Below, one piece after another: positions 3,942 to 63,382 of a stretch of 64,000 nucleotides of DNA (position 1 is the stretch's first letter; every line of letters starts with the position of its first letter). The stretch is taken from sequence record NC_028448.1. One strand, given 5' to 3'. Position numbers and translations under genes: made by a program. The stretch is from Escherichia phage slur14. The notes under the pieces are model-generated. The model did no database searches. It was not told the origin of the DNA and saw only the letters and a list, made by a program, of their open reading frames with translations.

Positions 3942-4214
3942 TTAGTTGTTAGAATACATCGCTAAATGACGATAAATATTTTCAAAACCTTCATTGAATT
4001 CACTAATCAGTGTTTTCTTTTCTTCGGCAGTTAAATTTGTAATTAGTTTTCTGAACGAATTCTGATTTAGCTGCCGACCATCTTTTTTAATTCCAATCTC
4101 ATTCAAGAATCCGATGAAACTTGCTCGGTCTTCAACAATATCTTCCCTAGAGAATTTAATCAAAATAGAAGCAATAGTAATAATTTCGCGTACGATTTCA
4201 ATGTCTTTATTCAT
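3942..4214 (-). CDS. asiA: Anti-sigma70 factor AsiA
   Basis: 90 aa; MNK..VREIIT.ASILIKFSREDIVE... matches T4 AsiA as recalled. Confidence 0.95.
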   Translation of the reverse strand: MNKDIEIVREIITIASILIKFSREDIVEDRASFIGFLNEIGIKKDGRQLNQNSFRKLITNLTAEEKKTLISEFNEGFENIYRHLAMYSNN

Positions 4215-4260
4215 AACGTTTTATTCATTCCACTTAGTTGATATGGATATAGTACCATTA

Positions 4261-4422
4261 TCAGTGTTGATTGTAAACGGCTTTTTCTACGCTTTTAACG
4301 TAATCAATGTAGTCTTCCTGTTCATACGAGTGTAAGGCCAAGAATGGAACTAATAGTTCATTATAGACTAAAGCCTCACGCTCACGTTCGGCCTCTACTA
4401 CGTTCTGAAGATTATGACTCAT
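4261..4422 (-). CDS. Hypothetical small protein (about 54 aa from an internal ATG with AGGAAC RBS)
   Basis: The track ORF 4261..4476 is trimmed to the ATG preceded by AGGAACAAT, which avoids overlap with the upstream gene. Confidence 0.45.
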   Translation of the reverse strand: MSHNLQNVVEAEREREALVYNELLVPFLALHSYEQEDYIDYVKSVEKAVYNQH

Positions 4423-6075: not shown

Positions 6076-6711
6076 TCACAGTTCAGATGCTACAGTGATT
6101 ACAGCTTCAATGTTTTCTGCCGAGCGTTTAATGTCAAGATACACATTACCGTTTTTAGCGATTTTACATGACATTCCGATATCAGTAAATTTCTGAATAT
6201 GATGTTCCATCATTTTGTATCCAAAAATTCGCATATTTCCATTGTTGTTAATTTCAAAATTACGAATTCCGTGAGTGCGTTTTTCTAAAATAGCGAGATA
6301 GTTACTGCGATAAGTTTCAACCTTTTTAAGAACAAATCCATTTTCATCTAAAAGTTTTAACATGAGGTCTTTATCTTCTTCCATATCGGAAGTAATCTCA
6401 CGAGCTTTACGAGTTGCTCGTTTTTTCAGCAGTTCCGGAGCATTTTCTTGTGCGTATAAAGTTGCTGCATTTGAAATAATATCCTGAGCTTCACCAGTAA
6501 TGATTAATCCATCACCAGATTTCTCCACCAGGCCTTTTTTAATCAATACCCCAATATTACTATTAACTACTGCGTTACCTAAATCTGGATGCACCTCACG
6601 AACTTCTGCAGCTGTAATGAAATCTTTCTTAGCAATAGTAATTAAAATCGCAGCAGTTTTTTCATTCAGAACATCGTTAGAAGCTTTGATGATGTAAGTT
6701 ACTTTAGACAT
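6076..6711 (-). CDS. motA: Middle transcription activator MotA
   Basis: 211 aa; MSKVTYIIKASNDVLNEK... matches T4 MotA as recalled. Confidence 0.95.
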   Translation of the reverse strand: MSKVTYIIKASNDVLNEKTAAILITIAKKDFITAAEVREVHPDLGNAVVNSNIGVLIKKGLVEKSGDGLIITGEAQDIISNAATLYAQENAPELLKKRATRKAREITSDMEEDKDLMLKLLDENGFVLKKVETYRSNYLAILEKRTHGIRNFEINNNGNMRIFGYKMMEHHIQKFTDIGMSCKIAKNGNVYLDIKRSAENIEAVITVASEL

Positions 6712-6752
6712 TTTCTAATCTCCGTAATTCTGTATCAGTAGTTGATAGTTGT

Positions 6753-6781
6753 ATAGTACCACAGTATGCTTTGGTTGTAAA
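6753..6781 (-). promoter_or_regulatory. Early promoter (T4-type; -35 TTTACA, 17-bp spacer, TGG-TACTAT -10)
   Basis: Minus strand reads TTTACA-N17-TACTAT with an upstream A/T tract. Member of the conserved early-promoter repeat family. Confidence 0.7.
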
Positions 6782-6801
6782 CCGTTTTGTGAAAAAATTT
6801 T

Positions 6802-6833
6802 AAAATAAAAAAGGGAGAGCCTCGGCTCTCCCT
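6802..6833 (-). terminator. Intrinsic terminator hairpin (GGGAGAGCC-loop-GGCUCUCCC + U-tract)
   Basis: 9-bp GC-rich stem followed by a T-run on the minus strand, directly after the stop of the 6838..6987 ORF. Confidence 0.65.
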
Positions 6834-8696: not shown

Positions 8697-9154
8697 TAAT
8701 ATGCCTGCAAAACAAATTTAAAGTTATCAGCCAACATACGGTTCATTTCTTCAAGTGTTTGATACTCAGAATGATGATTACGAGTAAACGCCAAAGCTAA
8801 CTGACCTTTACCAAATCCCGTCGTCAGAGGTTTCATCTTAGAAGCAGGCAGATAAAATACTGTGTATGGAACATTGTTATTTGCAATAGTACGCGCAAGC
8901 TGAGACCGACGCTGACGAATATGACTTAGAACCGCACTGAATCCTTGCTTAGAACGCTGATTACCTACATAAAATCGTGCAGACACGCACGGATTACTAA
9001 ATGGACGACCATCTAATTTACACACTAAAAAGTAAAATCCAGGTTTAGATAAAATATCTTTATGTGGAACTCCCAAAAACCATTCACCGTTCTTGATTGT
9101 ACCAATAACGGTAGCGCCTGCGTTGTTCAGATCAGTAACAGTCATATATTTCAT
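8696..9154 (-). CDS. ndd: Nucleoid disruption protein Ndd
   Basis: Begins at the internal [16 protein letters not shown]... with a GAGGAAA RBS; matches T4 Ndd as recalled. The track ORF is extended upstream. Confidence 0.9.
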
Positions 9155-9214
9155 ATTAATTTCCTCTAAATTATTTTCTACTCCAAGGCCGCATGAATAC
9201 ACACGGCCATTAAA

Positions 9215-9430
9215 TTAATCGTCGCAGTCGACGCTCAATTCCCAGAATTCTTCTACGGTATAAGTTTCAGTATCATTTTCAATACAGAAACGTTCATTAC
9301 TATTATTTGCTAAAGTAGCATTAACTGTCGGTTTCTCGCTAGTGCTCTTAAGAGGTGAAATACGAATTAACTGATCACCGTTATCTAAACAAAAAATTTC
9401 ACCAACTTTTACATCTTTAAAACTTTTCAT
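9215..9430 (-). CDS. Hypothetical protein (71 aa)
   Basis: ORF in the ndd.x region. Confidence 0.5.
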   Translation of the reverse strand: MKSFKDVKVGEIFCLDNGDQLIRISPLKSTSEKPTVNATLANNSNERFCIENDTETYTVEEFWELSVDCDD

Positions 9431-9545
9431 AATTCACCTCAAGGAGTATAAAATCCAAATGCAGTTGTTGACCATCCCATCCAATATGGGAAATTTGCAC
9501 CAATGTAAAACATAAGAATATAAAACCAAATGTTTAGTAAATTCA

Positions 9546-9764
9546 TCATTTTACACCATTCCAAATTGTTTCAACTACGGATTTTAAACCATTTTGATGA
9601 ATATCAATTCCGACTACTGTCATCAAATAGATTCCAACTACAACTGAACCTAAGGCAAAAATCAGCATGAAAATGAATAAAGCCGGAAAAATATTATCGA
9701 AAAACCATTCAATAGATGTAAAAGCACTGCGTTTACGCTTCATATTTTCCTCACATAAATCCAA
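9546..9764 (-). CDS. Hypothetical small membrane protein
   Basis: Hydrophobic ORF; true start uncertain. Confidence 0.4.
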   Translation of the reverse strand: MDLCEENMKRKRSAFTSIEWFFDNIFPALFIFMLIFALGSVVVGIYLMTVVGIDIHQNGLKSVVETIWNGVK

Positions 9765-9864
9765 AGTAAACGTTTAATACATCAATCATTAAAACGATTG
9801 GGAATATACTCAAAACTATTAGTATTATAACTACATTCCATATAGCTTTAACAATCTTTTTCAT
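9751..9864 (-). CDS. Small membrane peptide (about 37 aa)
   Basis: Starts at the internal MKKIVKAIW... after a GGAGG RBS. The N-terminal part of the track ORF is a translated promoter. Confidence 0.4.
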   Translation of the reverse strand: MKKIVKAIWNVVIILIVLSIFPIVLMIDVLNVYFGFM

Positions 9865-9892
9865 TTTCTGTTCCTCCGTAGTTGATAGTTGT

Positions 9893-9921
9893 ATAGTACC
9901 ACAGAGGAACAGTCTTGTAAA
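9893..9921 (-). promoter_or_regulatory. Early promoter (conserved repeat copy)
   Basis: GTTTACAAGACTGTTCCTCTGTGGTACTATACAACTATCAACTACGGAGG on the minus strand. Confidence 0.7.
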
Positions 9922-10107
9922 CAACTTTTTTAAAAATATTCGTAATAAATGTGAATACCAACTACTACCGCTGAAACCTGTGCAACCCACCACGCACAAG
10001 CAATAAGTACAGAATTCAAAATTTTCATAATAACCTCATCACAAAAGTAAATGTTAAACAAATTAATGGAATACTAATTAACCAAACAAAACACCACCAT
10101 AATGAAC

Positions 10108-10371
10108 TCATAGTTCAATCTCAATGATTTCCAGGTGTTTTTGTTTTATTGCCTTTTTAACACAATCATGGACTAAATATGACCATGAATCATTATATTC
10201 TCCATTAACTAATCGTTGGAGATCTTCACGTGATGATAAGTAAGGTTGATCTGATTCCCATTTTGATAAAAATACTGCAGTAAAAATATCTCCTTCACCT
10301 GTAGTTGAAGTCGTAAATGCAATAAATTCACCGGTAATTTTATGTTTAGCGTAATAAAATTTAAATTTCAT
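10108..10371 (-). CDS. Hypothetical protein (87 aa)
   Basis: ORF downstream of an early promoter. Confidence 0.5.
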   Translation of the reverse strand: MKFKFYYAKHKITGEFIAFTTSTTGEGDIFTAVFLSKWESDQPYLSSREDLQRLVNGEYNDSWSYLVHDCVKKAIKQKHLEIIEIEL

Positions 10372-10398
10372 TTTTACTCCTCCGTAGCTGATAGTTGT

Positions 10399-10427
10399 AT
10401 AGTACCACGGTCCTTGTGGTATGTAAA
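10399..10427 (-). promoter_or_regulatory. Early promoter
   Basis: TTTACA-N17-TACTAT followed by CGGAGG. Confidence 0.65.
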
Positions 10428-10447
10428 CTGTTTTGTGAAAAAATTTT

Positions 10448-11005
10448 TTAAATGGAAAGATACCATCCGTTGTAGTTGCTTTTTCTTACAACCTTACGAA
10501 GGTCTTCTCTGTCACCGATGAACTTCGGAGTGTACTGGATGACACCTGAATGAATTTCTTTAGTGTTGAATATAATTATACAGTCAGCGACTTGATGATT
10601 TAGAATGGGCCCTAGATTTATTCCAGAACCGTATGGATACTCTCCGCTGCATCCTGTTGTTACAGAAATCCAACGTGAGTCAGTTTGGTGTGTCTTAACT
10701 TCTACACGAAGCCCGCAGTATCTTGGATGCGCCAATACATCCCATGCGTATGTATACGGGTCATTAACATCCTCTTGGCCTTTATTGACATATCCGCTTA
10801 GCCAATCTGCTACAAAAAACTCTGCGTACACAGCGATACGGCATCTTTCGATAACTTCTGCCTTATCCTGATTCGGATTTTGTTTTAAAGAGTATCTTGC
10901 TGTATCAGCAATTTTGACCTTCATTTCACTAGTCAAGTCACTGTTCGATAGGGTAAATGTCGGAATCTGAAATAGTCTCTGTAAACCCGGATTCGTTTTC
11001 TGCAT
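10448..11005 (-). CDS. denB: Endonuclease IV DenB
   Basis: 185 aa, the T4 denB length and position (between the ndd.x genes and rIIB); AAGGAAAG RBS. Confidence 0.75.
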   Translation of the reverse strand: MQKTNPGLQRLFQIPTFTLSNSDLTSEMKVKIADTARYSLKQNPNQDKAEVIERCRIAVYAEFFVADWLSGYVNKGQEDVNDPYTYAWDVLAHPRYCGLRVEVKTHQTDSRWISVTTGCSGEYPYGSGINLGPILNHQVADCIIIFNTKEIHSGVIQYTPKFIGDREDLRKVVRKSNYNGWYLSI

Positions 11006-11267
11006 TTAGACTTTCCTTTTTACCACTGAGATAGGCGTTATATACTTTAAGAGTGCCATAATAAATTCGGTCATTTTCATCTAAAGACTCGCGGTCAAGT
11101 TCATCGAGCTCCTTTTTATCCATGACTATAACATTATTACAGTAAAGAAACCCAAGTTTTTCGTGACCAAACTCAAATTTATTACAGTACACAATATTAG
11201 CGTGATGATTTCCGTGCAGTTTAATCTCTTTTATGTCGGAATCACCGATATTCATACAATAAATCAT
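10938..11267 (-). CDS. Hypothetical protein (109 aa) whose 3' end overlaps the denB start
   Basis: ORF with a His/Cys-containing N-terminal region; overlaps denB by about 68 nt in a different frame. Confidence 0.4.
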   Translation of the reverse strand: MIYCMNIGDSDIKEIKLHGNHHANIVYCNKFEFGHEKLGFLYCNNVIVMDKKELDELDRESLDENDRIYYGTLKVYNAYLSGKKESLNAENESGFTETISDSDIYPIEQ

Positions 11268-11279
11268 AATTTTTCCTTA

Positions 11280-11299
11280 AAACAAAAGGGCCGAAGCCC
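11280..11299 (-). terminator. Hairpin GGGC-UUCG-GCCC with U-tract
   Basis: UUCG-tetraloop stem-loop after the stop of the 11305..11499 ORF. Confidence 0.55.
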
Positions 11300-11304
11300 T
11301 TATT

Positions 11305-11499
11305 TTATTTGAATTGTGCAATTCTTTTCTCTAGACATTCAGCATAAGATTTCATTGAGATGAACTGTGAAAGTAGCAGTTCTTGCTCAACTGCACTAAC
11401 TGTTAGAAACTTTGCGCTTTCTAAAAATTTGCTCAGTGCATTAATTTTGAGCATTAATTGATCGTATTCTTCTTTTACTCGTGCTTGATAACCTAACAT
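11305..11499 (-). CDS. Hypothetical protein (64 aa)
   Basis: ORF with an AAGGAAA RBS, immediately downstream of rIIB. Confidence 0.5.
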   Translation of the reverse strand: MLGYQARVKEEYDQLMLKINALSKFLESAKFLTVSAVEQELLLSQFISMKSYAECLEKRIAQFK

Positions 11500-11515
11500 A
11501 ATTTTCCTTAGTTAA

Positions 11516-11527
11516 GGGCCGAAGCCC
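11516..11527 (-). other. UUCG-tetraloop hairpin in the rIIB to next-gene intergenic region
   Basis: GGGCCGAAGCCC directly upstream of the next RBS; no strong U-tract. Confidence 0.5.
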
Positions 11528-12466
11528 TTATTTAAATTGTTCAGTAACGTCTTCAACTACTTCGTATTGGCAGGTACGCATTTTAGCGTCGTTGTAATCA
11601 ATCGGAATTGATACTACATCGCGAGGATGTACTTTAACTTTTACGACTCGGCTGGTTGAACTGCCAAAGTGACGAATATAAGATTTAGAACACACATGCA
11701 GACCACGAGAACAAGTTTGTGTATCATCGTCATTCACACGAGTACGTGGCATTTTAACTACTTTACCAGGACTGTTATCAAAGGTATTTGAGTGACAGTC
11801 AAAGTAATTACTACGAACTACTTTCCAAGCATAGAAGTAACCATCTTCTGTAATTTCAATATCATTTGCTACCAAGAAATCAAAGAGTCGAGATACCGCT
11901 TTTTGGCTTGGGTTTTCCAACAGATTTTCCAAGAACGGAAAATAAAATTCAAAGTTTTCACCTTTTTCCATCGAGTCAAGAATACGATCAACCAAACCAG
12001 ACCGTAATTCGATATTTTGATAGAACAAGCTTCCGCCTTCAATTCGAACATCGCCGGAAATATATTTTTCAACAGCGCGACGAACATTAATTTTTTGTGC
12101 CGCTTCTTCCAACTTATCTGCTACAAGCAGATTAAGAATTTCCTGGAAGTTTGAATGAGTATTAGGAGTTGCGTTATAAGTTACACCGTCAACGGTAATT
12201 GAAATGAATTTTTTAGATGCATTCCAAATAATGTCAGATTTAGCAACTGGAGCAATAGCTGCATCGCTATTAACTTTAACTGTAATATCACCGCTAATAG
12301 TAACTTTAGAGCGTTTAGCTTCTTCAGCATTTTTCAAAACACGACGGATTGTGTCAACCGATACACCTTGCCAATCAGCCAATTCCTGCTGAGTGTAATT
12401 ACCACTTGAATACAGCTTAACAATTTCAGCTTGTTCGTTTTTGGTCAGGCATTTAATATTGTACAT
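11528..12466 (-). CDS. rIIB: rIIB protein
   Basis: 312 aa, the T4 rIIB length, immediately downstream of rIIA. Confidence 0.9.
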   Translation of the reverse strand: MYNIKCLTKNEQAEIVKLYSSGNYTQQELADWQGVSVDTIRRVLKNAEEAKRSKVTISGDITVKVNSDAAIAPVAKSDIIWNASKKFISITVDGVTYNATPNTHSNFQEILNLLVADKLEEAAQKINVRRAVEKYISGDVRIEGGSLFYQNIELRSGLVDRILDSMEKGENFEFYFPFLENLLENPSQKAVSRLFDFLVANDIEITEDGYFYAWKVVRSNYFDCHSNTFDNSPGKVVKMPRTRVNDDDTQTCSRGLHVCSKSYIRHFGSSTSRVVKVKVHPRDVVSIPIDYNDAKMRTCQYEVVEDVTEQFK

Positions 12467-14894: not shown

Positions 14895-14924
14895 ATTATA
14901 CCACATCCTTGTGGTAAAGTAAAC
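14895..14924 (-). promoter_or_regulatory. Early promoter (TTTACT-N17-TATAAT, extended TGTGG)
   Basis: GTTTACTTTACCACAAGGATGTGGTATAAT on the minus strand; the -35 overlaps the gene 39 stop codon. Confidence 0.7.
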
Positions 14925-16744
14925 TACTGACTCATCCATTCTTTGCGAAGGTCAGCATTATCTCCCATGAGCATTTCAAAAAGCTCTTTCCAGTTCTCAG
15001 GAAGTTTAACAACATCATATACTGGATTTTGAATCATTTCACGATATTCAGATTTTTCCAAAGAGCCAAGTCCTTTAATATAACGGATGCTATGTTTAGG
15101 TAGAGCATCTTTGGCACTCTCATATTCAGCGACTGTATAAAACCATTCTTGTTTTTTACCGACCTGAGCGATGATTACAGGAGTTTTGACGAAGCGAATT
15201 CTTCCTTGTTCAAACAGTTCTGGCCAATTACTAAAAAATCCGAGCAGAGAAGGATAAATGCTTCCTAGACCATCGTGGTCAGCATCGGTCATAATAGCAA
15301 TATTATGATAATTCAAGTTTTCAGCCTTTTCACCAAGAACTAATCCAGTGATTGCGCAAATGTCAAACAGTTCTTTGTTTTTAAGCATATCGGCATATGA
15401 CATACCCCAACTGTTGAGAACTTTACCACGCAATGGATAACCACCATGAAGTTCTTTATCACGAACATCAATAAGATATCCGATAGCAGAATCACCCTCA
15501 GTCAAGAACAATGTAGTGTCAGCATCTTTACCGCACAGATTAGCTTTAATATGTTTATGAACCTTTGCCTTAGAAGCCTTTTTAGCTGCTTTAGTTTCTG
15601 CTGCTTTTTCTGCCGCCAATTTACGAGCCAAAGCAGCTTCAATAATCGGCATCAGAATTGCTTCATTATTTAGAATAGCGCGTGAAATCTTTTTAGCGTC
15701 AAGTTGAATATGACTACGAATTTCGCCAAATGGAGAAGTCAAACGCTCTTTAGTTTGAGAATCAAATCGCATGTTTTTCATATCACGAACAAACATAACG
15801 ATTGTCAAACATTCTTTTACACGCGCTTTAGTTACATCAATTTTGAACTTACGTTTGATTTGTGGAATAAGGTCTTCACAAATATCATCCATAACACAGT
15901 CAATGTGATGGCCACCATTCTTAGTGTGAATGTTATTCACGTAAGTTAATTGACGAAATCCATCCGGTGAACGACCAACCGCAATAGAACAATTTTCTTG
16001 TTCTTGAACGATAGCATGCTCATCATATTGGCGTGCATATTTCTTAAAATTGCCCTGAACCTTTTTACCATTAAAGGTAAATTGAATATCAGGATAAACT
16101 ACTGCAAGTGTCTGGAGACGATCTAGTGTAATGTCAAGATAAACTTGGGACAGCTCATTAGTTTCAAATGACATAAAATCAGGAATGAAAGTAACACGAG
16201 TTCCTTTCCATTTTCCAGGAATATCTTCCCATGATTTATTTTCCATGCCGTTTGAACAACGAACTACAATATTATTTTGACCATCACCAGTTTCACCGAC
16301 AAACATCACAGAAAAAATGTTTGTCAAACTAGAACCAACACCATTCATACCGCCAGTGACGCGTTCTTTATCATCGCCAAAGTTACCACCTGCTTTTGGA
16401 ATAGTCCATGCAGCAACAGGACCAGGAATTTCTTCACCGGTAGGTGTTTTAACCATCGCCTGTGGAATACCACGACCGTTATCTTCAACTGTTACTTGAT
16501 TGTTTTTAATAGTAACATTAATTTTATTTGCGAATTTAAACTTAGTACGAATACCTTCATCTACTGAGTTATCGATAATTTCATCAATAAGCTTAACAAG
16601 ACCAGGTACATACTGAACACTTTCCCATTTACCAAACAGAAAGCGCTCATGCATTTCATTAGCAGAAGAGCCAATGTACATGCCGCTACGCTTTTTGATA
16701 TGTTCAATATCGCTCAGAATTTTAATTTCATTCTTAATCATCAC
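14924..16744 (-). CDS. 39: DNA topoisomerase II large subunit gp39 (fused 39/60 form)
   Basis: 606 aa with a GyrB-like ATPase N-terminus and Toprim region; single uninterrupted ORF. Confidence 0.9.
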   Translation of the reverse strand: MMIKNEIKILSDIEHIKKRSGMYIGSSANEMHERFLFGKWESVQYVPGLVKLIDEIIDNSVDEGIRTKFKFANKINVTIKNNQVTVEDNGRGIPQAMVKTPTGEEIPGPVAAWTIPKAGGNFGDDKERVTGGMNGVGSSLTNIFSVMFVGETGDGQNNIVVRCSNGMENKSWEDIPGKWKGTRVTFIPDFMSFETNELSQVYLDITLDRLQTLAVVYPDIQFTFNGKKVQGNFKKYARQYDEHAIVQEQENCSIAVGRSPDGFRQLTYVNNIHTKNGGHHIDCVMDDICEDLIPQIKRKFKIDVTKARVKECLTIVMFVRDMKNMRFDSQTKERLTSPFGEIRSHIQLDAKKISRAILNNEAILMPIIEAALARKLAAEKAAETKAAKKASKAKVHKHIKANLCGKDADTTLFLTEGDSAIGYLIDVRDKELHGGYPLRGKVLNSWGMSYADMLKNKELFDICAITGLVLGEKAENLNYHNIAIMTDADHDGLGSIYPSLLGFFSNWPELFEQGRIRFVKTPVIIAQVGKKQEWFYTVAEYESAKDALPKHSIRYIKGLGSLEKSEYREMIQNPVYDVVKLPENWKELFEMLMGDNADLRKEWMSQ

Positions 16745-16768: not shown

Positions 16769-16794
16769 ATTATACTCCGGTAATCATAAAGCTA
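16769..16794 (-). promoter_or_regulatory. Middle promoter (MotA-box-like TAGCTTTA, 12 bp, TATAAT)
   Basis: MotA-box-like element and -10 with 12-bp spacing upstream of the gene 39 start. Confidence 0.55.
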
Positions 16795-16796
16795 AA

Positions 16797-16808
16797 GGCC
16801 CGAAGGCC
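16797..16808 (-). terminator. Hairpin GGCC-CGAA-GGCC
   Basis: Stem-loop between the 16811..17080 ORF and the gene 39 middle promoter. Confidence 0.5.
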
Positions 16809-16810
16809 TT

Positions 16811-17080
16811 TTATTTAAAACGAATAGTTGAATCCTTAAAGAACAGCCCAGAACATACTGTTCCTTCTACTTTCTGCCCAGTAGGTCCAATAGCACGAAA
16901 TCCAGTATGTTGGAAATCATTTTCAGAACAACCAAACCAATTATATCCAGTGATTTCAATATTAGTAAAACCACTTGAAGATAAAACTTTGGTTGCATTA
17001 TCAGCATCAGTACATCCTGCTAAAGACACTGCTAATACTAATGCCGCGATAGAACGATTAATATATTTCATAATTTTCAC
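16811..17080 (-). CDS. Predicted lipoprotein (89 aa)
   Basis: Signal peptide with a LAGC lipobox. Confidence 0.55.
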   Translation of the reverse strand: MKIMKYINRSIAALVLAVSLAGCTDADNATKVLSSSGFTNIEITGYNWFGCSENDFQHTGFRAIGPTGQKVEGTVCSGLFFKDSTIRFK

Positions 17081-18277: not shown

Positions 18278-18559
18278 TTAATTGAACAGTGGAGCGATGC
18301 GTTTCAGAAGAGTAGCAGCACCTTTGGCGAATTTTACATCATGAAAAACAGTTTCTTCTTCCGTTACAACACGAGCTTTAATGTTTTCACAATCCCAATT
18401 TTTACGAACAATCTTCAAAAGCTGCAGTAAATCTTTACATTCAGCAATATCGATAACACATCCACGAGAATCTTCCATTATCGCACGATAACCATAAGCC
18501 ATACCATAATCGTTGAAAGATTGCTCGATGATAATTAAGTTTTCCATTTTATTCTCCAA
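18278..18559 (-). CDS. Hypothetical protein (93 aa)
   Basis: ORF downstream of an early promoter-like element (18586..18620). Confidence 0.5.
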   Translation of the reverse strand: MENKMENLIIIEQSFNDYGMAYGYRAIMEDSRGCVIDIAECKDLLQLLKIVRKNWDCENIKARVVTEEETVFHDVKFAKGAATLLKRIAPLFN

Positions 18560-18644
18560 GTTGTTTTCTGTATCAGTAGTTGATATTGATATAGTACCAT
18601 AATCAACTACTGATGTATATAGTTTTATGAAAAAATTTTAAACT

Positions 18645-19723: not shown

Positions 19724-20227
19724 TTAATCTAAGGTAATAAAGCCTTTTAGTTCGGCATGTGACTTGCGGAACATTACTTGATGCCCGCCAACGATAACTT
19801 GGTCATCTGGTACTTCGTATACAGCAAGATAAAATCCTTTCGAAGCTAATTCTTCACGCTCTTCTCGTGTGAACCATCTCATCATATCATATTCGCTAGC
19901 GAAAGCAAAATGATAAAGAGCTATAAACCATCCTGGAATATAGTGATCTACGCCTACATATTCTTCTTTCTCAAAATTAGTATTAATTGCTATATTAGCA
20001 TTTTTAACTAATAATTTGTCTTCATGCGGCACAGGAATTCTTTTATTATCATTACTATGATGCATAAAATTGGGTCTGTCATAACCTACGCGTAATAACC
20101 ACTCTTCACTCCATGAATCTATTATACTCCTGTACGGAGTTATTTGAACACAAAGATCTCGACGTATTGTTATAGCATCTTCATAATTAAGAATACTAAA
20201 TGATGATTCAACACGATAAATTTTCAT
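19724..20227 (-). CDS. Hypothetical protein (167 aa)
   Basis: ORF downstream of the early promoter at about 20255..20283. Confidence 0.55.
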   Translation of the reverse strand: MKIYRVESSFSILNYEDAITIRRDLCVQITPYRSIIDSWSEEWLLRVGYDRPNFMHHSNDNKRIPVPHEDKLLVKNANIAINTNFEKEEYVGVDHYIPGWFIALYHFAFASEYDMMRWFTREEREELASKGFYLAVYEVPDDQVIVGGHQVMFRKSHAELKGFITLD

Positions 20228-20254
20228 TTTATTATCCTCAGTAGCTATGGTGTT

Positions 20255-20283
20255 ATAATACCATAACTAACCGAGGAAGTAAA
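20255..20283 (-). promoter_or_regulatory. Early promoter (TTTACT-N17-TATTAT)
   Basis: GTTTACTTCCTCGGTTAGTTATGGTATTAT on the minus strand. Confidence 0.6.
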
Positions 20284-20290
20284 CAACTTT

Positions 20291-27879: not shown

Positions 27880-28089
27880 TTAAATTACATGATTATTTAT
27901 AATAAATTCTCGCGGAACGTTAAAATACCCAATTTTAGTTAATATAACAACATCGCCGTTAATAATTACCGGAGAATAATCTTCTGGAGCATTAAATTTC
28001 CAATGGGCTCTAATATTATATCCATCAGAACCAAATGCTCGACTAGCCGGTCTCCCGGCTTTTTGCCATGCATAAAAATCAAATTTCAT
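27880..28089 (-). CDS. Hypothetical protein (69 aa)
   Basis: ORF. Confidence 0.5.
   Translation of the reverse strand: MKFDFYAWQKAGRPASRAFGSDGYNIRAHWKFNAPEDYSPVIINGDVVILTKIGYFNVPREFIINNHVI
27894..27901 (-). promoter_or_regulatory. Late promoter TATAAATA for soc
   Basis: Exact TATAAATA on the minus strand about 30 nt upstream of the soc ATG. Confidence 0.65.
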
Positions 28090-28283
28090 TTTGAATGCTC
28101 TATAATTAATTTTAAAGCTTCTTCACTGACAAAAATTTCGTCAGGACCTTCTATAATTTCAACCATACGAAGTTGATTAGTTAAGAGCTCACACACGAGC
28201 TCTTTGTTATAATCTTTAAATAGCTGGTCAATACGTTTCTTATGGGCTTTCTTGAGCTGGCGTTTATTTAAACTAGCCATCAA
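28086..28283 (-). CDS. Hypothetical protein (65 aa)
   Basis: ORF with ATGA overlap. Confidence 0.5.
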   Translation of the reverse strand: MMASLNKRQLKKAHKKRIDQLFKDYNKELVCELLTNQLRMVEIIEGPDEIFVSEEALKLIIEHSK

Positions 28284-28798
28284 TAACCTCGGTCTTGACG
28301 AGCGAAGTTTTCAGCATTTTTCAGATAATAAAGTTTAAAGATTTCTTCAGCCGACATTCCAAGAGCAATAAATTTATTCATGAAAAAGTGAAATTGATCA
28401 ATCAGTTCAAATTTAATTTCAAGCTGATCTTCGGGAGATAAATCTTGAATTTTCTTGGATTGCATTTCAGAATAACGTTTCTTCCAAGGTTTCCATACAG
28501 CAGAAGCTTCTTTTTCACCATTACTCATACCACCAAGAGAAGTATATAGCTCGCGAGTTTCATCTGCGATATAATCGTCTTGGTTTCGCAACCAAGCAAG
28601 AACTTCTCCTGCAGTTTCAAGTGAATCAGGATGACGATTTGTTTCTGGCTTATCATTAGCCAAACGAATCTGTAAATGCCGCTGCATGTCAAGCATAACC
28701 TGCAATGGGTCAATACTGTGCATAATATACTCAGCATATGCACGATTTGCTTTATCAACACCTTCGATCAAATGAGCACATTCATTAAAGTGAGCCAT
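28280..28798 (-). CDS. 56: dCTPase/dUTPase gp56
   Basis: About 172 aa from the ATG with an AAAGGAAAAA RBS; the track start codon is not ATG in my reading. Confidence 0.8.
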   Translation of the reverse strand: MAHFNECAHLIEGVDKANRAYAEYIMHSIDPLQVMLDMQRHLQIRLANDKPETNRHPDSLETAGEVLAWLRNQDDYIADETRELYTSLGGMSNGEKEASAVWKPWKKRYSEMQSKKIQDLSPEDQLEIKFELIDQFHFFMNKFIALGMSAEEIFKLYYLKNAENFARQDRGY

Positions 28799-28858: not shown

Positions 28859-30198
<1,340 letters not shown>

Positions 30199-30223
30199 TA
30201 TATCATCCTCAGCAATTTATTTT

Positions 30224-30252
30224 ATAATACCATAACAAGCTGAGAAAGTAAA
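30224..30252 (-). promoter_or_regulatory. Early promoter (TTTACT-N17-TATTAT)
   Basis: GTTTACTTTCTCAGCTTGTTATGGTATTAT on the minus strand. Confidence 0.55.
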
Positions 30253-30297
30253 CAAATTTATGAAATTTGTGATAAATATTAATTTAAAGGAGGACAT

Positions 30298-31526: not shown

Positions 31527-31691
31527 TACTCTTCTTTTTCTTTAGATTCCTCTTTTTTCTTTTTAGGAATCTGTTCAGGACCTTTATTTACTACAGCACC
31601 TGATGTTGTTCCAGTAGAGATATTTTCAGGATTACCACCTGAATCTCCAGCAACCATATCTTCTTTAATAAATTCTTTATATGTTTTCATA
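31527..31691 (-). CDS. Small Lys/Glu-rich protein (about 54 aa)
   Basis: Hand translation MKTYKEFIKEDMVAGDSGG...KKKKEESKEKEE; below the track size cutoff. Confidence 0.4.
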
Positions 31692-32048
31692 TTAACCTCT
31701 ATTCATAAAAGCATTAAAAATTTGGTCATCAATAGATGGAATAGCAACCTTTTCGGCATCATTTAGCAAATCATTAATTTCATCAGATATCATAACACAT
31801 GTGCCTTTATTTCCTGTAATTGTTACTGCACAATTACGAACGTTTTCTTTATCAAATTTTAGGTTAATATTTTCGTAGTGAAAATCCTTTAATGCCGAAT
31901 ATATCTTTAAAATGAAATTGTCTTTTACTACAATAAACCCAACTTCACTATTAAAACGTGGTTCATGGAAACTGTAATAAACCTTTTCATCTATGAAATC
32001 GTATGAAATTTTTTCCATTTTTAAATATGAAAATTCAGAACTATACAT
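31692..32048 (-). CDS. Hypothetical protein (118 aa), paralogue of the C-terminal half of the adjacent 208-aa protein
   Basis: Shares VG.I.VKDN and an identical C-terminus SIDDQIFNAFMNR(G/D) with 32050..32676. Confidence 0.55.
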   Translation of the reverse strand: MYSSEFSYLKMEKISYDFIDEKVYYSFHEPRFNSEVGFIVVKDNFILKIYSALKDFHYENINLKFDKENVRNCAVTITGNKGTCVMISDEINDLLNDAEKVAIPSIDDQIFNAFMNRG

Positions 32049-32049
32049 A

Positions 32050-32676
32050 TTAATCTCTATTCATAAAAGCATTAAAAATTTGGTCATCAATAGAAACATT
32101 TACTTTAGACTGTTTTTCAGATGGCAATTCATATCCACATATTACAATTTTATGATCAATATCAAAATACACAGAAGCAATATGATTAATGATATTTTCA
32201 GTGAAGTCTAAATCGACATCAATATCTTTTTGACCAAAGCCCAAAGGATAAATAATGCGAGTAATTCGATTATCTTTAACAAAGATTCCACCGACATACT
32301 CTGTACTGCGTTTAAAGTCTACACGCCGACGAAATGAAAAATATTCAGGCTCTTTATGAGCTCGGCTCATAGGACACAACGAGTAACTAGAATAAGAGAT
32401 GTCAAATCCTACGCCTTCGATATGAGCCAAAGTGTCATGATTAAACCAATTATAATCGTACGCCAAATCCATTAGATTATAATATGTAAAAGGCACCGGA
32501 TTAACATCATTAGTCACAAGCATGTAATTAGCAACTGCTATAATTTCATTATTTTTAACGAATACAAACCGTGATTGATGCGAATGACCTGGACCCGCGT
32601 TTTCACGATTAATGATATAACACTGGGCACCTTTATATTTGTATGTATCTTTGCACTTGTGCATTTGATAGAGCAT
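32050..32676 (-). CDS. Hypothetical protein (208 aa; 61.2-like position)
   Basis: ORF in the primase-helicase interval. Confidence 0.5.
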   Translation of the reverse strand: MLYQMHKCKDTYKYKGAQCYIINRENAGPGHSHQSRFVFVKNNEIIAVANYMLVTNDVNPVPFTYYNLMDLAYDYNWFNHDTLAHIEGVGFDISYSSYSLCPMSRAHKEPEYFSFRRRVDFKRSTEYVGGIFVKDNRITRIIYPLGFGQKDIDVDLDFTENIINHIASVYFDIDHKIVICGYELPSEKQSKVNVSIDDQIFNAFMNRD

Positions 32677-35309: not shown

Positions 35310-36483
35310 TAAATTCTTCCATATCACTTAACTGCTCGAGGTCAGTTTCTAAATCAGCTGCTGATTTACTTTTACTTTCTGGAGATTTAAATTTTTCAAC
35401 CTTTGAGTTAATCAATTCATCAACTTCAGCTTCAACAATTTCATTACTATCAATAGCACCTAACTGATAAGCACGTTTAATAGCATCTCGGAATGGTTGA
35501 TGCTTAAATAAAGGACCCCAGAATGTAGTGCAGTTGGTATCTTTTGCACGCCAAGATTTTTCTTCGCGAATCATCTCGCCGGTTTCTTCATCAAGAAATT
35601 CACGAGCATACCAGCCATTTTTAGGTTTTACCACGAATCCTAATTCTAGAGCCATATCTAACAATCCAGAATAAGGATCGATACCACCGTCAAATTTAAC
35701 ATCAATAAAGAATTTACTTTTTTCTTTAACGGTACGAGATTTTTCTACATTTAGAACAAATTGATACCCCTGAAGATCAGAACCATCTTTAATCTGACGC
35801 TTACCGATAATGAATACAGTATCAGCCGAATACATTACGCCTGTACCACCTGTCATCACGGTTTTACTAAACATTTCAATTGTTTCAATTGTATGGTTAA
35901 CCGCAACGCACGGAATATTTTTAATGCTAAAATAAGGAGTAACAATACGGAATAATGACTTCAGTGATTTAGCACGAGTCATATCTGCCACAGATTTTTC
36001 ATTCAAGGCATCTTCCGTTTCTTTCTTAGAAGCCATATTACCGATTGAGTCGATGAATACAATAACCTTTTCACCACGCTCAATAGCTTCAAGCTGGTTC
36101 ACCATATCAATTTTCAGTTGTTCAACTGACTGAATCGGCGTATGAATTACTCGTTCCGGGTCAACTCCCATGGATCGCAAATAAGCTGGAGTAATACCAA
36201 ATTCGCTATCATAGAATAGACAAACCGCGTCAGGATATTTGTTCAAATACGCCGCAACCATAGTCAAAGACATATTTGATTTAAAGTGTTTAGAAGGCCC
36301 TGCGAAAATAGTTAAACCAGACTGCATACCACCATCAATCGCACCAGAAATAGCAATATTAAGCATTGGAATTTTTGTACGAATTACATCCTTTTCATTA
36401 AAGAATTTAGATGTAGTCAGTTCAGCAGTCATTTTAGAAGTGGAAGCTTTAATCAAACGGGATTTTAAATCTGCAATAGACAT
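35302..36483 (-). CDS. uvsX: Recombinase UvsX (RecA family)
   Basis: 393 aa; RecA-like Walker A (GPSKHFKS). Confidence 0.95.
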   Translation of the reverse strand: MSIADLKSRLIKASTSKMTAELTTSKFFNEKDVIRTKIPMLNIAISGAIDGGMQSGLTIFAGPSKHFKSNMSLTMVAAYLNKYPDAVCLFYDSEFGITPAYLRSMGVDPERVIHTPIQSVEQLKIDMVNQLEAIERGEKVIVFIDSIGNMASKKETEDALNEKSVADMTRAKSLKSLFRIVTPYFSIKNIPCVAVNHTIETIEMFSKTVMTGGTGVMYSADTVFIIGKRQIKDGSDLQGYQFVLNVEKSRTVKEKSKFFIDVKFDGGIDPYSGLLDMALELGFVVKPKNGWYAREFLDEETGEMIREEKSWRAKDTNCTTFWGPLFKHQPFRDAIKRAYQLGAIDSNEIVEAEVDELINSKVEKFKSPESKSKSAADLETDLEQLSDMEEFNE

Positions 36484-36560
36484 TCATTTTTTCCATAGGC
36501 ATCATTATATTTTCCTCACTGGTTAAAGATAGAGTAATTATAACACAATAAATTTAGGCA

Positions 36561-37409
36561 TTAATCAACTGCTATTGGATGAATAGCATTAAACTTATGA
36601 AATGCTTCTGATTTTTCTTTACGAGAAACACACATGCGAAGAACCTTTAATGGCTCGTCTTCTTCACCCAACGATTTTCGTTTTTCAATATTAGAAGTTT
36701 TCCAACGAGCTTGCTCTGGAAACTCTCTATTGATTTGTTCAAGCGCTCTATTATGTTTAGAATTACTACGAATTGAACTGCACCCGCCGGGAGCGTGTGA
36801 TTTTCCAGATACAACTAGATATTTGAACAAGGCCAAATGCGGATAACCTTGATTAATTAAATTGAGAAATGCGTACATATCTTCACATAAATCAATTTTT
36901 CCATACCCAATTTGTTCTGTCGTAAGTTTTCCGAGGTCATACCATGTATTCGTGAATCCATATGAGTTTTCACGATAATTACCCCAAGATGAAGTAATTT
37001 TAAAAATTGGTAGACGAGCATGACCGTGATAATACCCGCAATCCATAGCATCCTCAACGTATTGAATTAATTCATAGAACTGTTCACGAGTTAATTGATT
37101 AATTTTATCTACGCGCCGTTTATCGTCTCTCTTTCGTATTGAACTCATACGAATAGTAGTATCATCATCAATCATCCAGATTCGTTGACCTGCATACATA
37201 TCAGTAATTGCTTTACGAGTACCGGCAATTCCATTAACATCATCAGGAATAGTTACAATTTTAGCTCTAGACCCATAAGCATCATAATAAGCTTTTTCTT
37301 CGTGTTCACGCACTACAATATGTGGTTCATAATCAGTCGGAAACATATCAAGGGCAGAAACTGCCCCTACGCGTTGATAGCTTGGAATTACGAATTGAAT
37401 CATTTCCAC
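36561..37409 (-). CDS. Glycosyltransferase (GT-A-like, DxD motif), in the T4 beta-gt position
   Basis: 282 aa with WMIDDDT; located between uvsX and gene 42. Confidence 0.55.
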   Translation of the reverse strand: MEMIQFVIPSYQRVGAVSALDMFPTDYEPHIVVREHEEKAYYDAYGSRAKIVTIPDDVNGIAGTRKAITDMYAGQRIWMIDDDTTIRMSSIRKRDDKRRVDKINQLTREQFYELIQYVEDAMDCGYYHGHARLPIFKITSSWGNYRENSYGFTNTWYDLGKLTTEQIGYGKIDLCEDMYAFLNLINQGYPHLALFKYLVVSGKSHAPGGCSSIRSNSKHNRALEQINREFPEQARWKTSNIEKRKSLGEEDEPLKVLRMCVSRKEKSEAFHKFNAIHPIAVD

Positions 37410-38140
37410 TCACCGTTATAATCTTTTTTCACAATATGAGTTTCGCCAGTATTCCACCAATGATCAACCAAGTAAAAATGACGAGAATATACATGAAGAC
37501 TTCCAACATTCCATATAATAGAACCTGCTTTATACTGACGAGTTGAATCGCCTGCATTCAAATCAGATACTAATTTATCTAATACGTATTTTTGCCATGC
37601 ATAATCATTACGGAATCCGAAGACCACGTCATTTGAGCGCATGCTTACTACTGCATTGACTTTCTTATCACGAATCAGGTACTGTACTGTATTCGTACAC
37701 ATGAAATCTGACATACCATCTTTATTGTAGTCAAATTGCATGGATGGACGAGTATAAATCATGATACCACGTCGAGAATCAGGATTTTGACCAAGTTCAG
37801 CTAAACACATATCATACTGAGCATAGTTATCTTCTGACCAGATAGCCCAACCATAATTCGAGTTAATTTCGCCTTTAGAAGATGCTACCTGCTGCCAAAT
37901 CTTCGGTGTTTCACCTGGAATATCTTTAACGAACAAGCTCTTAGATTTATACCATTCAAGTTCACGCTGAATGTATTCATCATTAAGAGCGCCAAAAATA
38001 AAAGGTTCATCTGCTACAAATGATGCACCAATAATTTCAATAGTTTTAACCCCGGTTTTATCAATTACGAAATCTTTTTCCTTTAATGCAAGACCCAAAT
38101 CAAGACGGATTTCTTCAACTGTCATATAATCGTTAATCAT
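37400..38140 (-). CDS. 42: dCMP hydroxymethylase gp42
   Basis: 246 aa; thymidylate-synthase-like. Confidence 0.95.
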   Translation of the reverse strand: MINDYMTVEEIRLDLGLALKEKDFVIDKTGVKTIEIIGASFVADEPFIFGALNDEYIQRELEWYKSKSLFVKDIPGETPKIWQQVASSKGEINSNYGWAIWSEDNYAQYDMCLAELGQNPDSRRGIMIYTRPSMQFDYNKDGMSDFMCTNTVQYLIRDKKVNAVVSMRSNDVVFGFRNDYAWQKYVLDKLVSDLNAGDSTRQYKAGSIIWNVGSLHVYSRHFYLVDHWWNTGETHIVKKDYNGEWK

Positions 38141-38293: not shown

Positions 38294-38545
38294 TCATTCC
38301 TTCTCTCTGATGATAATTACCTGATTTGGCTGCGCAGACTTTTTAGTTTCACCTACAATTGACCAAATAAATGTAATAAACCAACCAATAATTGACCAGT
38401 TAAACAGTAAAGATGTGAAAAAGATTCCTACTGTCGATTTTGACCCACGCATCAAGGCGATAAACCATGGAAGCATGTATATAATAATAGCCAACACGCC
38501 TGATACTAAAACCATAAAAATTGAACCTGCTACTAAAGTTTCCAT
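38294..38545 (-). CDS. imm: Immunity protein Imm
   Basis: 83 aa with two TM segments. Confidence 0.9.
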   Translation of the reverse strand: METLVAGSIFMVLVSGVLAIIIYMLPWFIALMRGSKSTVGIFFTSLLFNWSIIGWFITFIWSIVGETKKSAQPNQVIIIREKE

Positions 38546-38552
38546 GTTTTCC

Positions 38553-38933
38553 TCACTTAGTCAAATTTTTTACGCATGAATTATAAGAATTCACTACATA
38601 CTCCATCGGAGCATTTTTACCAGTACGCCATTGGTAATTATTAGCCCAATTAGCCCAAATTTCGGCGCAGTAGTTTTCAATTTTTTCTTCGCGTGTAATT
38701 ACATCAGAATTACGATATGCTTGAGCAGATTCATCTGGACGAATAGCTTCGTCAAAATTCGCCTGCATTTGTTCGACTGTTTGCTTTGGAGCTTCTTTAT
38801 AACACTTGACATTAGGATTATAAAATTTGCTTGAACAGTTTACAATTTTTCCTGCATCAGACTGATTTACTACCGGTCCTTGAGCTACACAACCAGTAAG
38901 ACCTAATGCAATAACCAAAATAGCGATTTTCAT
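38553..38933 (-). CDS. Predicted lipoprotein (126 aa)
   Basis: Signal peptide with an LTGC lipobox. Confidence 0.55.
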   Translation of the reverse strand: MKIAILVIALGLTGCVAQGPVVNQSDAGKIVNCSSKFYNPNVKCYKEAPKQTVEQMQANFDEAIRPDESAQAYRNSDVITREEKIENYCAEIWANWANNYQWRTGKNAPMEYVVNSYNSCVKNLTK

Positions 38934-38943
38934 AATAATTTCC

Positions 38944-39180
38944 TCAAATACAAGTAGTAATTACTCCAGTAGTGCTTACACAGATATTACCTAATTGAAC
39001 ACCCAGCGTTCCATTAGTATTCACATGAAGATTATCATCAATTTTAACTGATATTTTACCATTAGTGTGAATAACGGTGCTAGATTCAATCACAGGTTGA
39101 GTATCATTTTCAACACTAACAAATGGAACTGCTGCTAATGCAACTAAACAAACTGCTAAGCATCCCATAACAATTTTCAT
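38944..39180 (-). CDS. Small secreted/membrane protein (about 78 aa)
   Basis: Starts at the internal MKIVMGCLAV... after a GGAG RBS. The track ORF is extended through the promoter. Confidence 0.5.
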   Translation of the reverse strand: MKIVMGCLAVCLVALAAVPFVSVENDTQPVIESSTVIHTNGKISVKIDDNLHVNTNGTLGVQLGNICVSTTGVITTCI

Positions 39181-39214
39181 TTTATTCTCCAAATCCGTAT
39201 TAGTTGATAATTGT

Positions 39215-39243
39215 ATAGTACCACAGAGGAACAGTCTTGTAAA
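39215..39243 (-). promoter_or_regulatory. Early promoter (conserved repeat copy)
   Basis: GTTTACAAGACTGTTCCTCTGTGGTACTATACAATTATCAACTAATACGGA on the minus strand. Confidence 0.7.
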
Positions 39244-39325
39244 CAGTTTTGTGAAAAAATTTTTAATGAATTTACAGGACCTAGAATCATCTATTTTTCC
39301 TAAGTATAGATTTATATTACTTGTA

Positions 39326-39348
39326 TGAAAAAGGGACCCGGAGGTCCC
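39326..39348 (-). terminator. Intrinsic terminator after gene 43 (GGGACC-UCCG-GGUCCC + U5)
   Basis: 6-bp GC stem followed by TTTTT on the minus strand. Confidence 0.7.
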
Positions 39349-39361
39349 TAGATTTATTCTA

Positions 39362-42102: not shown

Positions 42103-42132
42103 ATTATACTCCAAATAAGGGGCCGAAGCCCC
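42103..42132 (-). promoter_or_regulatory. Hairpin (GGGGC-UUCG-GCCCC) followed by a -10 TATAAT upstream of gene 43
   Basis: Stem-loop at about 42119-42132 and TGGAGTATAAT at about 42103-42112 on the minus strand. Confidence 0.5.
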
Positions 42133-42136
42133 TTGC

Positions 42137-42358: not shown

Positions 42359-42359
42359 A

Positions 42360-44254: not shown

Positions 44255-44289
44255 AATTTCCTCATTCAAGTTTTAGTGTAAATTATAAA

Positions 44290-44301
44290 GGGCCGAAGCC
44301 C
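44290..44301 (-). other. UUCG-tetraloop hairpin in the 45-44 intergenic region
   Basis: GGGCCGAAGCCC. Confidence 0.5.
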
Positions 44302-44305
44302 TCTA

Positions 44306-49011: not shown

Positions 49012-49012
49012 T

Positions 49013-50215: not shown

Positions 50216-50238
50216 TTAATATCCTCTTTGTTTTGGTT

Positions 50239-63380: not shown

Positions 63381-63382
63381 GG

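Follow-up and report, generated by a model that had tools for sequence, protein, structure and literature searches.

The DNA analysed here is a 64,000-nucleotide (nt) stretch of the Escherichia phage slur14 genome (NC_028448.1), referred to below as the window, and the element in question is a family of dispersed repeats of about 50 base pairs (bp) that appear to carry early promoters of the phage T4 type. The window segments 9000–11500, 38300–39900 and 62800–64000 are each 100% identical to Escherichia phage slur03, the first of them additionally to slur08 and vB_EcoM_Lutter (genus Tequatrovirus; hereafter Lutter), and T4-like phages generally show ~96–98% identity to all three. Judged by these identities, the window is Tequatrovirus genome. 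It is collinear with T4 (MT984581) from gene 37/38 through asiA, motA, 52, ndd, denB, rIIB/rIIA, 39, motB, dda, modA/B, 61, 41, uvsX, 42, imm, 43, 45, 46/47 and 55 to nrdC.8, with ~20 insertions, deletions or replacements breaking the alignment. Nearly all genes lie on the minus strand, in keeping with the negative GC skew, and an Rfam search of the entire window gave no matches.

The repeat family is real. Its most conserved unit, the 49-mer TCCGTAGTTGATAGTTGTATAGTACCACAGAGGAACRGTCTTGTAAACA, is found exactly at 9875–9923 and 63921–63969, the sole difference being at the R position (48/49 identical), and no 49-mer match arose in 100 dinucleotide shuffles of the window. A preliminary description of this DNA had reported the near-exact pair, correctly apart from a first interval placed one base off (9876–9924), together with diverged copies at ~39196, 6741 and 10381, all of which were recovered in a whole-window repeat search (64–79% identity over 67 nt). 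The search returned a 77-nt family with seven copies (6728, 9868, 10374, 18566, 39190, 53466 and 63914) and a second grouping of 67 nt with five, in which identity to the reference 9860–9926 is 97% at 63906–63972, 79% at 39182–39248, 69% at 10366–10432 and 64% at 6720–6786. The diverged copies span ~39190–39266, 10374–10450 and 6728–6804, with weaker ones at 18566–18642 and 4206–4263; compared with the 49-mer without gaps, the copy at 10381 has 13 mismatches and that at 6735 has 12. A core, TGGTACTATACAACTATCAACTAC, is common to all copies. Across phage records, the 49-mer occurs at 3264 places in 541 records, or ~6 per genome, with six in slur03.

Read on the minus strand, the order of elements is an A/T-rich AAAATTTTTTCACAAAAC, GTTTACA, a 14-nt variable part, TGGTACTAT, the conserved segment ACAACTATCAACTAC of start site and leader, a Shine-Dalgarno sequence (SD) and ATG. 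GTTTACA, 17 nt and TACTAT are present in all five copies named above, which are labelled in the following as minus-strand cassettes by the upstream-end coordinate of the −35 element (9922, 63968, 39244, 10428 and 6782), and TGG directly precedes TACTAT in all copies, giving an extended −10 (TGn). The A/T-rich UP element is AAAATTTTTTCACAAAAC or a close variant upstream of 6782, 10428 and 39244, ATATTTTTAAAAAAG at 9922, and the less typical GAAAGAAGTTTCTTTTAG at 63968. The spacing had been mis-stated in the preliminary description as GTTTACA-N17-TGGTACTAT, a literal pattern that, with up to three mismatches, matches no family member; the true spacing is GTTTACA-N14-TGGTACTAT, that is, TTTACA-N17-TACTAT between hexamers. 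A GGAGG had also been placed after each copy, which is the case at 9922, 63968 and 10428, whereas at 39244 and 6782 a GGAG lies further downstream. Scanning IMG/VR for the generic pattern GTTTACW-N14-TGGTATWATA gave, among the matches listed, unrelated environmental contigs and was uninformative.

The two near-identical copies precede different genes. Cassette 9922 (9862–9945, minus strand) has its UP element at ~9923–9945, the −35 GTTTACA at 9916–9922, the −10 TACTAT at 9893–9898 after TGG, the SD GGAGG at 9873–9877 and the ATG of a 37-amino-acid (aa) Ndd.4-like membrane peptide at 9862–9864. Cassette 63968 (63908–63990, minus strand) precedes nrdC.8, with −35 at 63962–63968, −10 at 63939–63944, SD at 63919–63923 and ATG at 63908–63910. 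Downstream of denB and 506 bp from 9922 lies cassette 10428 (10369–10450, minus strand; −35 10422–10428, −10 10399–10404, SD GGAGG 10379–10383, ATG 10369–10371), which would drive an 87-aa open reading frame (ORF) beginning MKFKFYY (10108–10371, minus strand; phrog_2390), followed by ndd.6/ndd.5. Cassette 39244 (39178–39266, minus strand; −35 39238–39244, −10 39215–39220, SD GGAG 39187–39190, ATG 39178–39180) is followed by a 78-aa ORF (MKIVMGCLAV..., 38944–39180, minus strand; phrog_4189, function unknown) lying between the promoter and leader and imm.1, and then by imm.1/imm. The motA cassette 6782 (6709–6804, minus strand) has −35 at 6776–6782, −10 at 6753–6758, a type-C leader and ATG at 6709–6711, and the asiA promoter 4278 (4212–4278, minus strand; −35 4272–4278, −10 4249–4254, ATG 4212–4214) is a diverged family member. 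Every cargo ORF of the cassettes falls into a phage protein family of unknown function.

Judged by this architecture, the repeats are T4-type early promoter cassettes, each comprising UP element, −35, TGn, −10, leader, SD and the start codon of a small early gene. T4 early promoters are described as UP/−35/TGn/−10 promoters with extra consensus regions (Hinton 2010 review, PMC2988021), and the fit to that consensus claimed in the preliminary description is borne out, with all elements on the minus strand directly upstream of the SD and ATG of early genes. The slur14 copies share with the T4 promoters the UP element, −35 GTTTAC, TGn, −10, orientation and downstream genes (motA, asiA, the ndd cluster, imm.1 and nrdC.8), and differ in nothing essential, only in a variant block of the ndd.4 promoter and in the ORFs after two promoters. 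The −35 and −10 coordinates of 9922 and 10428 coincide base for base with annotated features (promoter, minus_35, minus_10) of T4 record X75802, and those of 6782 with promoter, −35 and −10 features of T4 record Z48569. Promoters are likewise annotated in the Lutter record at the equivalents of 6753–6782 and 10399–10428, and a "promoter" in the fPS-2 record under the 49-mer. All five named copies have co-oriented prereplicative genes downstream, assigned by collinearity with annotated T4. Lists of T4 early promoters are said to have been compiled by Liebig and Rüger in 1989 and by Wilkens and Rüger. We infer that transcription in slur14 starts at the copies, where host sigma-70 RNA polymerase would initiate ~7 nt past the −10 hexamer, immediately after infection. 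With high confidence, we read the repeats as T4-type early promoter cassettes that are kept near-identical by functional constraint together with ectopic recombination, and that undergo shuffling of the promoter-early stem-loop (PeSL) type.

Two further observations concern the early promoters of the window. A motif (C/T)TATCAA(C/A), 4–12 nt past the −10 and across the expected start, is found repeatedly in early promoters from several T4-like genera (window promoters, RB69 locus L182 and loci L187–L201), with or without a hairpin; it may be an initial-transcribed-sequence or 5′-leader signal. In addition, a second near-identical pair of early promoters, 97% identical over 32 nt, lies upstream of rIIA.1 (14895–14926) and nrdC.4 (60955–60986); its sequence is GTTTACT-TT(A/G)CCACAAGGATGTGG-TATAAT, and its spacer has a small CCACA...TGTGG inverted repeat, like the 10428 spacer.

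The 49-mer is also an imperfect palindrome, a feature that the preliminary description had overlooked. In minus-strand RNA, CUGUUCCUCUGUGGU, made up of spacer and TGn, pairs with ACUACGGAGGAACAG, made up of leader and SD. At 9922, the predicted hairpin (9868–9912, minus strand) has 15 bp between a 5′ arm at 9898–9912 and a 3′ arm at 9868–9882, with a 15-nt loop that holds much of the −10 (−23.2 kcal/mol, z = −5.8; none of 200 shuffles folds this stably); at 63968, the arms are 63944–63956 and 63916–63928 on the minus strand (−20.9 kcal/mol, z = −4.4). Spacer–leader pairing is predicted in 7 of the 18 early promoters of the window, and the stems of the other five are unrelated in sequence to the 49-mer. 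Among these is the motB.2 promoter 20284 (20225–20284, minus strand), which lies outside the 49-mer family yet shows the hairpin design at its clearest and has arms at 20261–20277 and 20235–20251, with SD GAGGA in the 3′ arm (−23.7 kcal/mol, z = −6.5). The weaker cassette 18620 (18545–18642, minus strand; −35 ATATACA 18614–18620, −10 18591–18596, ATG 18545–18547), which precedes an 89-aa ORF partly absent from T4, has a 13-bp outer stem between spacer and leader (18602–18614 and 18572–18584, minus strand) and a short inner stem that closes on part of the −10 (−20.2 kcal/mol, z = −5.0). The remaining three are 33528 (dmd; −18.9 kcal/mol, z = −4.0), 19210 (motB; −21.5 kcal/mol, z = −3.4) and 30253 (−12.1 kcal/mol, z = −2.7). 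The SD lies in the stem at 9922, 63968, 20284 and 30253; at 33528, 19210 and 18620, it is outside, the 3′ arm lying at +1 to +12, and these three hairpins may do something other than SD masking. The family members 39244 (z = +0.9), 10428 and 6782 show no comparable fold.

The pairing extends beyond individual hairpins. Over the 18 early promoters, the duplex of a spacer with its own leader averages −11.0 kcal/mol, compared with −7.8 kcal/mol with other leaders (permutation p ~ 1e-5). The same test gave p = 1.6e-4 in T4, which is not independent of the window, and in RB69 p = 0.06 for the six promoters of a strict search and p = 0.004 when 16–18-bp spacers were allowed (n = 9). At the motB.2 promoter, the stem is UCCUCGGUUAGUUAUGG (5′ arm) with CCAUAGCUACUGAGGA (3′ arm) in Tequatrovirus, UCUCCUCAUG with CAUGAGGAGA in six contigs of the L187–192 group (64–72% MotB.2 identity), and UCUCCUCUGGUU with AACCAGAGGAGA in RB69; across these three lineages 10, 10 and 2 paired positions are changed on both sides with pairing kept, the register being set by spacer position and not by homology alignment. 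The nrdC.8 promoter likewise has two different stems, both predicted to mask the SD: that of the 49-mer in Tequatrovirus, and UCUCCAGUAG with CUACUGGAGG in two divergent contigs. That orthologous promoters of other genera carry different stems supports selection for the pairing. Scans for MotB and Dmd orthologs found only close relatives (87–100% identity) and so were uninformative on covariation at the 19210 and 33528 hairpins.

What the hairpins could do was approached through the predicted accessibility of the SD, averaged over four sequence contexts because predictions from a single context are fragile (for the motB.2 own transcript, 0.80 with 30 coding nt but 0.01 with 40). At the four promoters with the SD in the stem, the predicted unpaired probability is ≤0.02 in read-through RNA versus 0.33–0.78 in the own transcript, with 0.00 and 0.78, respectively, at 9922. 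More broadly, among promoter-proximal genes 8 of 18 have an SD predicted to be less than 10% unpaired in the read-through context, compared with 4 of the 59 remaining genes (Fisher p = 6e-4), and truncation at the start site raises predicted accessibility by 0.30 at the former versus 0.07 at the latter (p = 7e-4). Read-through RNA of the two identical copies would fold the spacer onto leader and SD, burying the SD. RNA begun at the cassette's own promoter would lack the 5′ arm, since that arm is the spacer and lies upstream of the −10, and would leave the SD free. Read-through from 10428 into 9922 is plausible because no terminator lies between them. We therefore put forward, as a tentative model that may well turn out otherwise, that a subset of T4-group early promoters, the two identical 49-mers among them, sits inside a hairpin that would mask the SD in read-through (delayed-early or middle) RNA, such that only own-promoter transcripts would be translated.

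A precedent for this arrangement exists at the other end of the infection cycle. Inhibitory hairpins with a late promoter inside each are known at the initiation regions of T4 e, soc, 49 and I-TevI (Uzan & Miller 2010, PMC3014915). As predicted for the slur14 hairpins, the SD is in the 3′ arm and the 5′ arm is upstream of an internal start, so that the own transcript lacks the 5′ arm. Unlike them, the T4 cases have an internal late promoter (TATAAATA) that delays expression to late infection, whereas the slur14 promoters are of the early sigma-70 type and would limit translation to immediate-early transcripts. By analogy, then, the slur14 hairpin promoters would work like the e/soc/49/I-TevI type without being among its described members, and the early-promoter-in-hairpin design is plausibly a new variant of a known form of T4 translational control. 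No early-promoter hairpin cases were found in PMC3014915 or the reachable literature, although older T4 literature, not covered, may mention them.

A competitor to translational masking is a role of the spacer–leader inverted repeats in the DNA itself or as 3′-end elements of RNA, for example as cruciform/endonuclease VII recombination hot spots, in supercoiling-sensitive opening, or as terminators or stabilisers of upstream transcripts. The 3′ arms at 33528, 19210 and 18620, which exclude the SD, fit such roles, as do the stems of RB69 and the L187 group, which are perfectly Watson-Crick paired and equally stable on both strands; moreover, RB49 PeSL stem-loops have been shown to terminate transcription (PMC2839356). 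Nevertheless, G.U pairs occur in each of the seven Tequatrovirus hairpins, which are 2–9 kcal/mol more stable as sense than as antisense RNA, and an RNA-level role is favoured for that reason. The stems are not followed by a T-run, and the excess of predicted SD masking at promoter-proximal genes also speaks for translation. We regard action on DNA or at RNA 3′ ends as unlikely, while keeping it in view. Hairpin promoters tend, as expected, to lack an upstream terminator (6 of 7 hairpin promoters versus 7 of 11 others), but the difference is not significant (Fisher p = 0.6).

The recombination half of our reading, anticipated in the preliminary description as module shuffling at long repeats, gains support when the repeat-flanked modules are compared with those of T4 and other contigs. 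One promoter core occurs with at least three leader types (A = GGAGGAACAG; B = TGATACGGATTTGGAGAATAAAATGAAAAT; C = TGATACAGAATTACGGAG) and several spacers, in varied combinations, in the window, T4 and IMG/VR contigs. Cassette 39244, for instance, joins the spacer of the 49-mer to a type-B leader (TACGGATTTGGAGAATAAAATGAAAAT), and the same promoter with the same 87-aa ORF carries leader A in the window and leader B in three other contigs. At the ndd.4 promoter, TGGTACTAT is followed by TACCCT in T4 and three contigs and by ACAACT in the window, Lutter and one contig; at the nrdC.8 promoter, ACAACT is found in most genomes and TACCCT in one contig. C/T, CTG/CCG and ACAG/ACAC alleles are seen at both promoters, which lie 54 kb apart and are 48/49 identical in slur14, the T4 pair having ~8 differences.

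Junctions with T4 point the same way. Leader B and ATGAAAATCGCT come after the promoter at the ndd locus of T4, in a patch of ~49 nt that replaces the 87-aa ORF intact in the window. With a single-base difference, this patch matches the imm.1 promoter and leader of T4 together with the first 12 coding nt (four codons); it runs directly into the final codons (GAGATTGAACTATGA) of the 87-aa ORF, the rest of which is deleted in T4. What remains is an eight-codon ORF, ATGAAAATCGCTGAGATTGAACTATGA (MKIAEIEL*; T4 ~167005–167031, minus strand; L004 ~9006–9032), in which an imm.1-type start is fused to the last codons of the 87-aa ORF. The 78-aa ORF, absent from T4, is inserted at the start codon after the 39244 promoter with an 8-bp repeat, ATGAAAAT, on both sides. 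The window differs from T4 at 18340–18539, just after the ATG downstream of 18620, and at 29726–30265, a 540-bp promoter-plus-ORF cassette (promoter 30253); like 10134–10380 and 38934–39166, these junctions lie in or next to cassettes. The comparisons support exchange of sequence between copies by conversion or recombination, a mechanism that we infer from the alignments. Functional constraint on every promoter element would keep the dispersed copies near-identical over ~50 bp; ectopic homologous recombination and gene conversion between copies, via the phage's very active recombination system, would be a second force, and spacer–leader complementarity a third constraint in the two identical copies. 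The same recombination would move, insert, delete and swap the short ORFs attached to the cassettes.

Other cassettes show related features. The promoter-plus-ORF cassette that includes promoter 30253 (29638–30265) is absent from T4, and its promoter resembles that of motB.2 (87% over 38 nt). Its 186-aa product shows sub-threshold Pfam similarity to the restriction endonucleases DpnII (E = 0.005) and BanI (E = 0.009), with a D...EIK motif, and may be a nuclease. In RB69 (L182, 18654–19750), imm and imm.1 sit between sp and 61.4 and not beside gene 43, each behind its own GTTTACA early promoter, which is an example of whole-cassette relocation between genera.

The repeat phenomenon itself has already been published for T4 and close relatives, the ndd locus included, a prior description missed in the preliminary one. 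PeSL cassettes were defined in RB49/phi1, where promoter and terminator activity was shown and mini-circles arise when neighbouring PeSLs recombine, the crossovers falling between −10 and SD or ATG (Arbiol 2010, PMC2839356). They were extended to T4/PST with the consensus TTTACW-N17-TAYWAT and an ndd.4/.5 exchange between two PeSLs at the same locus as 9922/10428, with credit to Repoila 1994 and Mosig 1998 for earlier T4 observations (Comeau 2014, PMC4122927). The window copies fit this consensus and share the PeSL arrangement of early promoter, SD and ATG of a small ORF in hyperplastic regions, beside ORF insertions, deletions and swaps between close relatives. They differ in that the defining upstream terminator stem-loop is present at only two of the five named copies, and in that the stem-loop of the identical copies spans the promoter from spacer to SD, whereas in PST the PeSL stems are reported to lie immediately upstream of it. 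The two copies with a terminator are 39244, where an intrinsic-terminator-like stem-loop (39332–39349, minus strand) 88 nt upstream of the promoter gives the PeSL layout of terminator plus promoter, and 6782, where a strong terminator-like hairpin (6812–6833, minus strand; 9 bp, then a T-run), also a terminator in the Lutter record, lies 30 nt upstream of the motA promoter.

Several points weigh against our reading as a whole. Just 5 of the 18 window early promoters have a terminator-like stem-loop within 160 nt upstream. Neither 9922 nor 10428 has one, so both fall short of the full PeSL layout; at 63968 the scan covers the 34 nt left before the window end. Many of the indels between the window and T4 have no connection with promoters (for example homing endonuclease genes, a tandem duplication and terminator repeats), and part of the similarity between copies could reflect convergent functional constraint and not recombination. 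A genome-wide T4 transcription-start dataset was sought in the literature and none was found.

Taken to its limit, the convergence argument holds that selection on an optimal promoter, leader and SD explains everything, that the copies exchange nothing, and that the neighbouring indels are coincidental. An extended consensus is indeed common to all T4 early promoters (PMC2988021), and the start-site motif CTATCAAC recurs in other genera. Such convergence does not account for the ACAACT/TACCCT blocks and single-nucleotide alleles that segregate at two loci in different genomes, for the imm.1 leader plus 12 coding nt, devoid of any part in promoter function, that the ndd locus of T4 carries, for a leader type that switches ahead of one and the same ORF, or for identical bases at consensus-free spacer positions. 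Flanking sequence without function has moved between loci in at least one case, the ATGAAAATCGCT patch. We consider selection alone improbable.

More improbable still is that the 49-mer is an autonomous small mobile element, akin to miniature inverted-repeat transposable elements (MITEs), repetitive extragenic palindromes (REPs) or a PeSL mini-circle, moved by a dedicated recombinase or nuclease. The unit is an imperfect inverted repeat, it is dispersed at ~6 copies per genome, and the authors who described mini-circles in RB49/phi1 suggested a possible helper protein (PMC2839356). Against this, copy positions are orthologous, not variable, across hundreds of genomes, there are no target-site duplications, and junctions fall at differing points in shared homology or at start codons; a MITE-like transposon was rejected on these grounds. 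The unrelated hairpins of other early promoters further mean that the palindrome is not a signature of the family.

The cassettes also disturb annotation. The preliminary description had flagged artefactual N-terminal extensions, and in-frame extensions are found upstream of the real ATG, LFTRLFLCGTIQLST at 9922 and 39244 and LFTRPFLCGTIQLST at 63968; they are confirmed as artefacts. That the extended frames (LFTRLFLCGTIQLST...) encode a genuine N terminus and the repeat is a conserved protein motif has next to no probability: in three copies the frame stays open and in phase, and some database entries carry the extended form (phrog_28140), but the extension would begin at a TTG inside the −35 without an SD, a canonical SD and ATG lie downstream in each case, conservation is at the nucleotide level and reaches the intergenic upstream element, the remaining copies are either out of phase or broken by stop codons, and the T4 annotation gives the short forms. 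In the Lutter record, a 37-aa coding sequence (CDS), F10A_0274, is laid across the 9922 promoter (window 9848–9961, minus strand), and PHROG 28140 is an 80-aa profile of which positions 44–80 match the 37-aa Ndd.4-like peptide (window 9751–9999). The repeats thus explain recurrent annotation errors, in which ORFs are extended into or called across promoters, that now stand in public records and protein-family profiles.

Among the other differences from T4, near-identical terminator hairpins of sequence (A)AGGGCCGAAGCCCTT lie at 11286–11311, 11514–11539, 16786–16816, 42115–42146, 44285–44316, 48998–49023 and 52638–52663, and the window insertions 11020–11214 and 42141–42359 adjoin copies of them. 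This setting recalls the GGGC...GCCC deletion end-points of Mosig 1998, as cited in the PeSL literature. T4 mobile elements missing or replaced in the window comprise the mobA/gene 60 split region, segF, segA with the neighbouring beta-gt region, mobB, mobC and the nrdD intron with I-TevII (window sites ~15260–15323, 27902–28316, 36472–37417, 50207–50230, 54708 and 56005). A tandem duplication at 31688–32094, with a period of 358 bp and 49-nt boundary repeats (31688–31736 and 32046–32094, 98% identical), is single-copy in T4, where the alignment shows a 309-bp gap and a 49-bp overlap.

The window confirms, in one more Tequatrovirus, the T4/PST picture of early promoter cassettes as host-takeover switches and as seams for accessory-gene exchange. 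To this, the slur14 genome adds junction-level evidence for conversion and ORF shuffling, and documented annotation artefacts (the Lutter CDS over the 9922 promoter and phrog_28140). Should the masking model be true, synthesis of small host-takeover proteins would be confined to the first minutes of infection, as a temporal mirror image of the late-promoter hairpins at e, soc, 49 and I-TevI. It would also explain the co-variation of spacer and SD in the cassettes, and would provide a sequence-encoded rule that separates immediate-early from read-through translation of the same gene.

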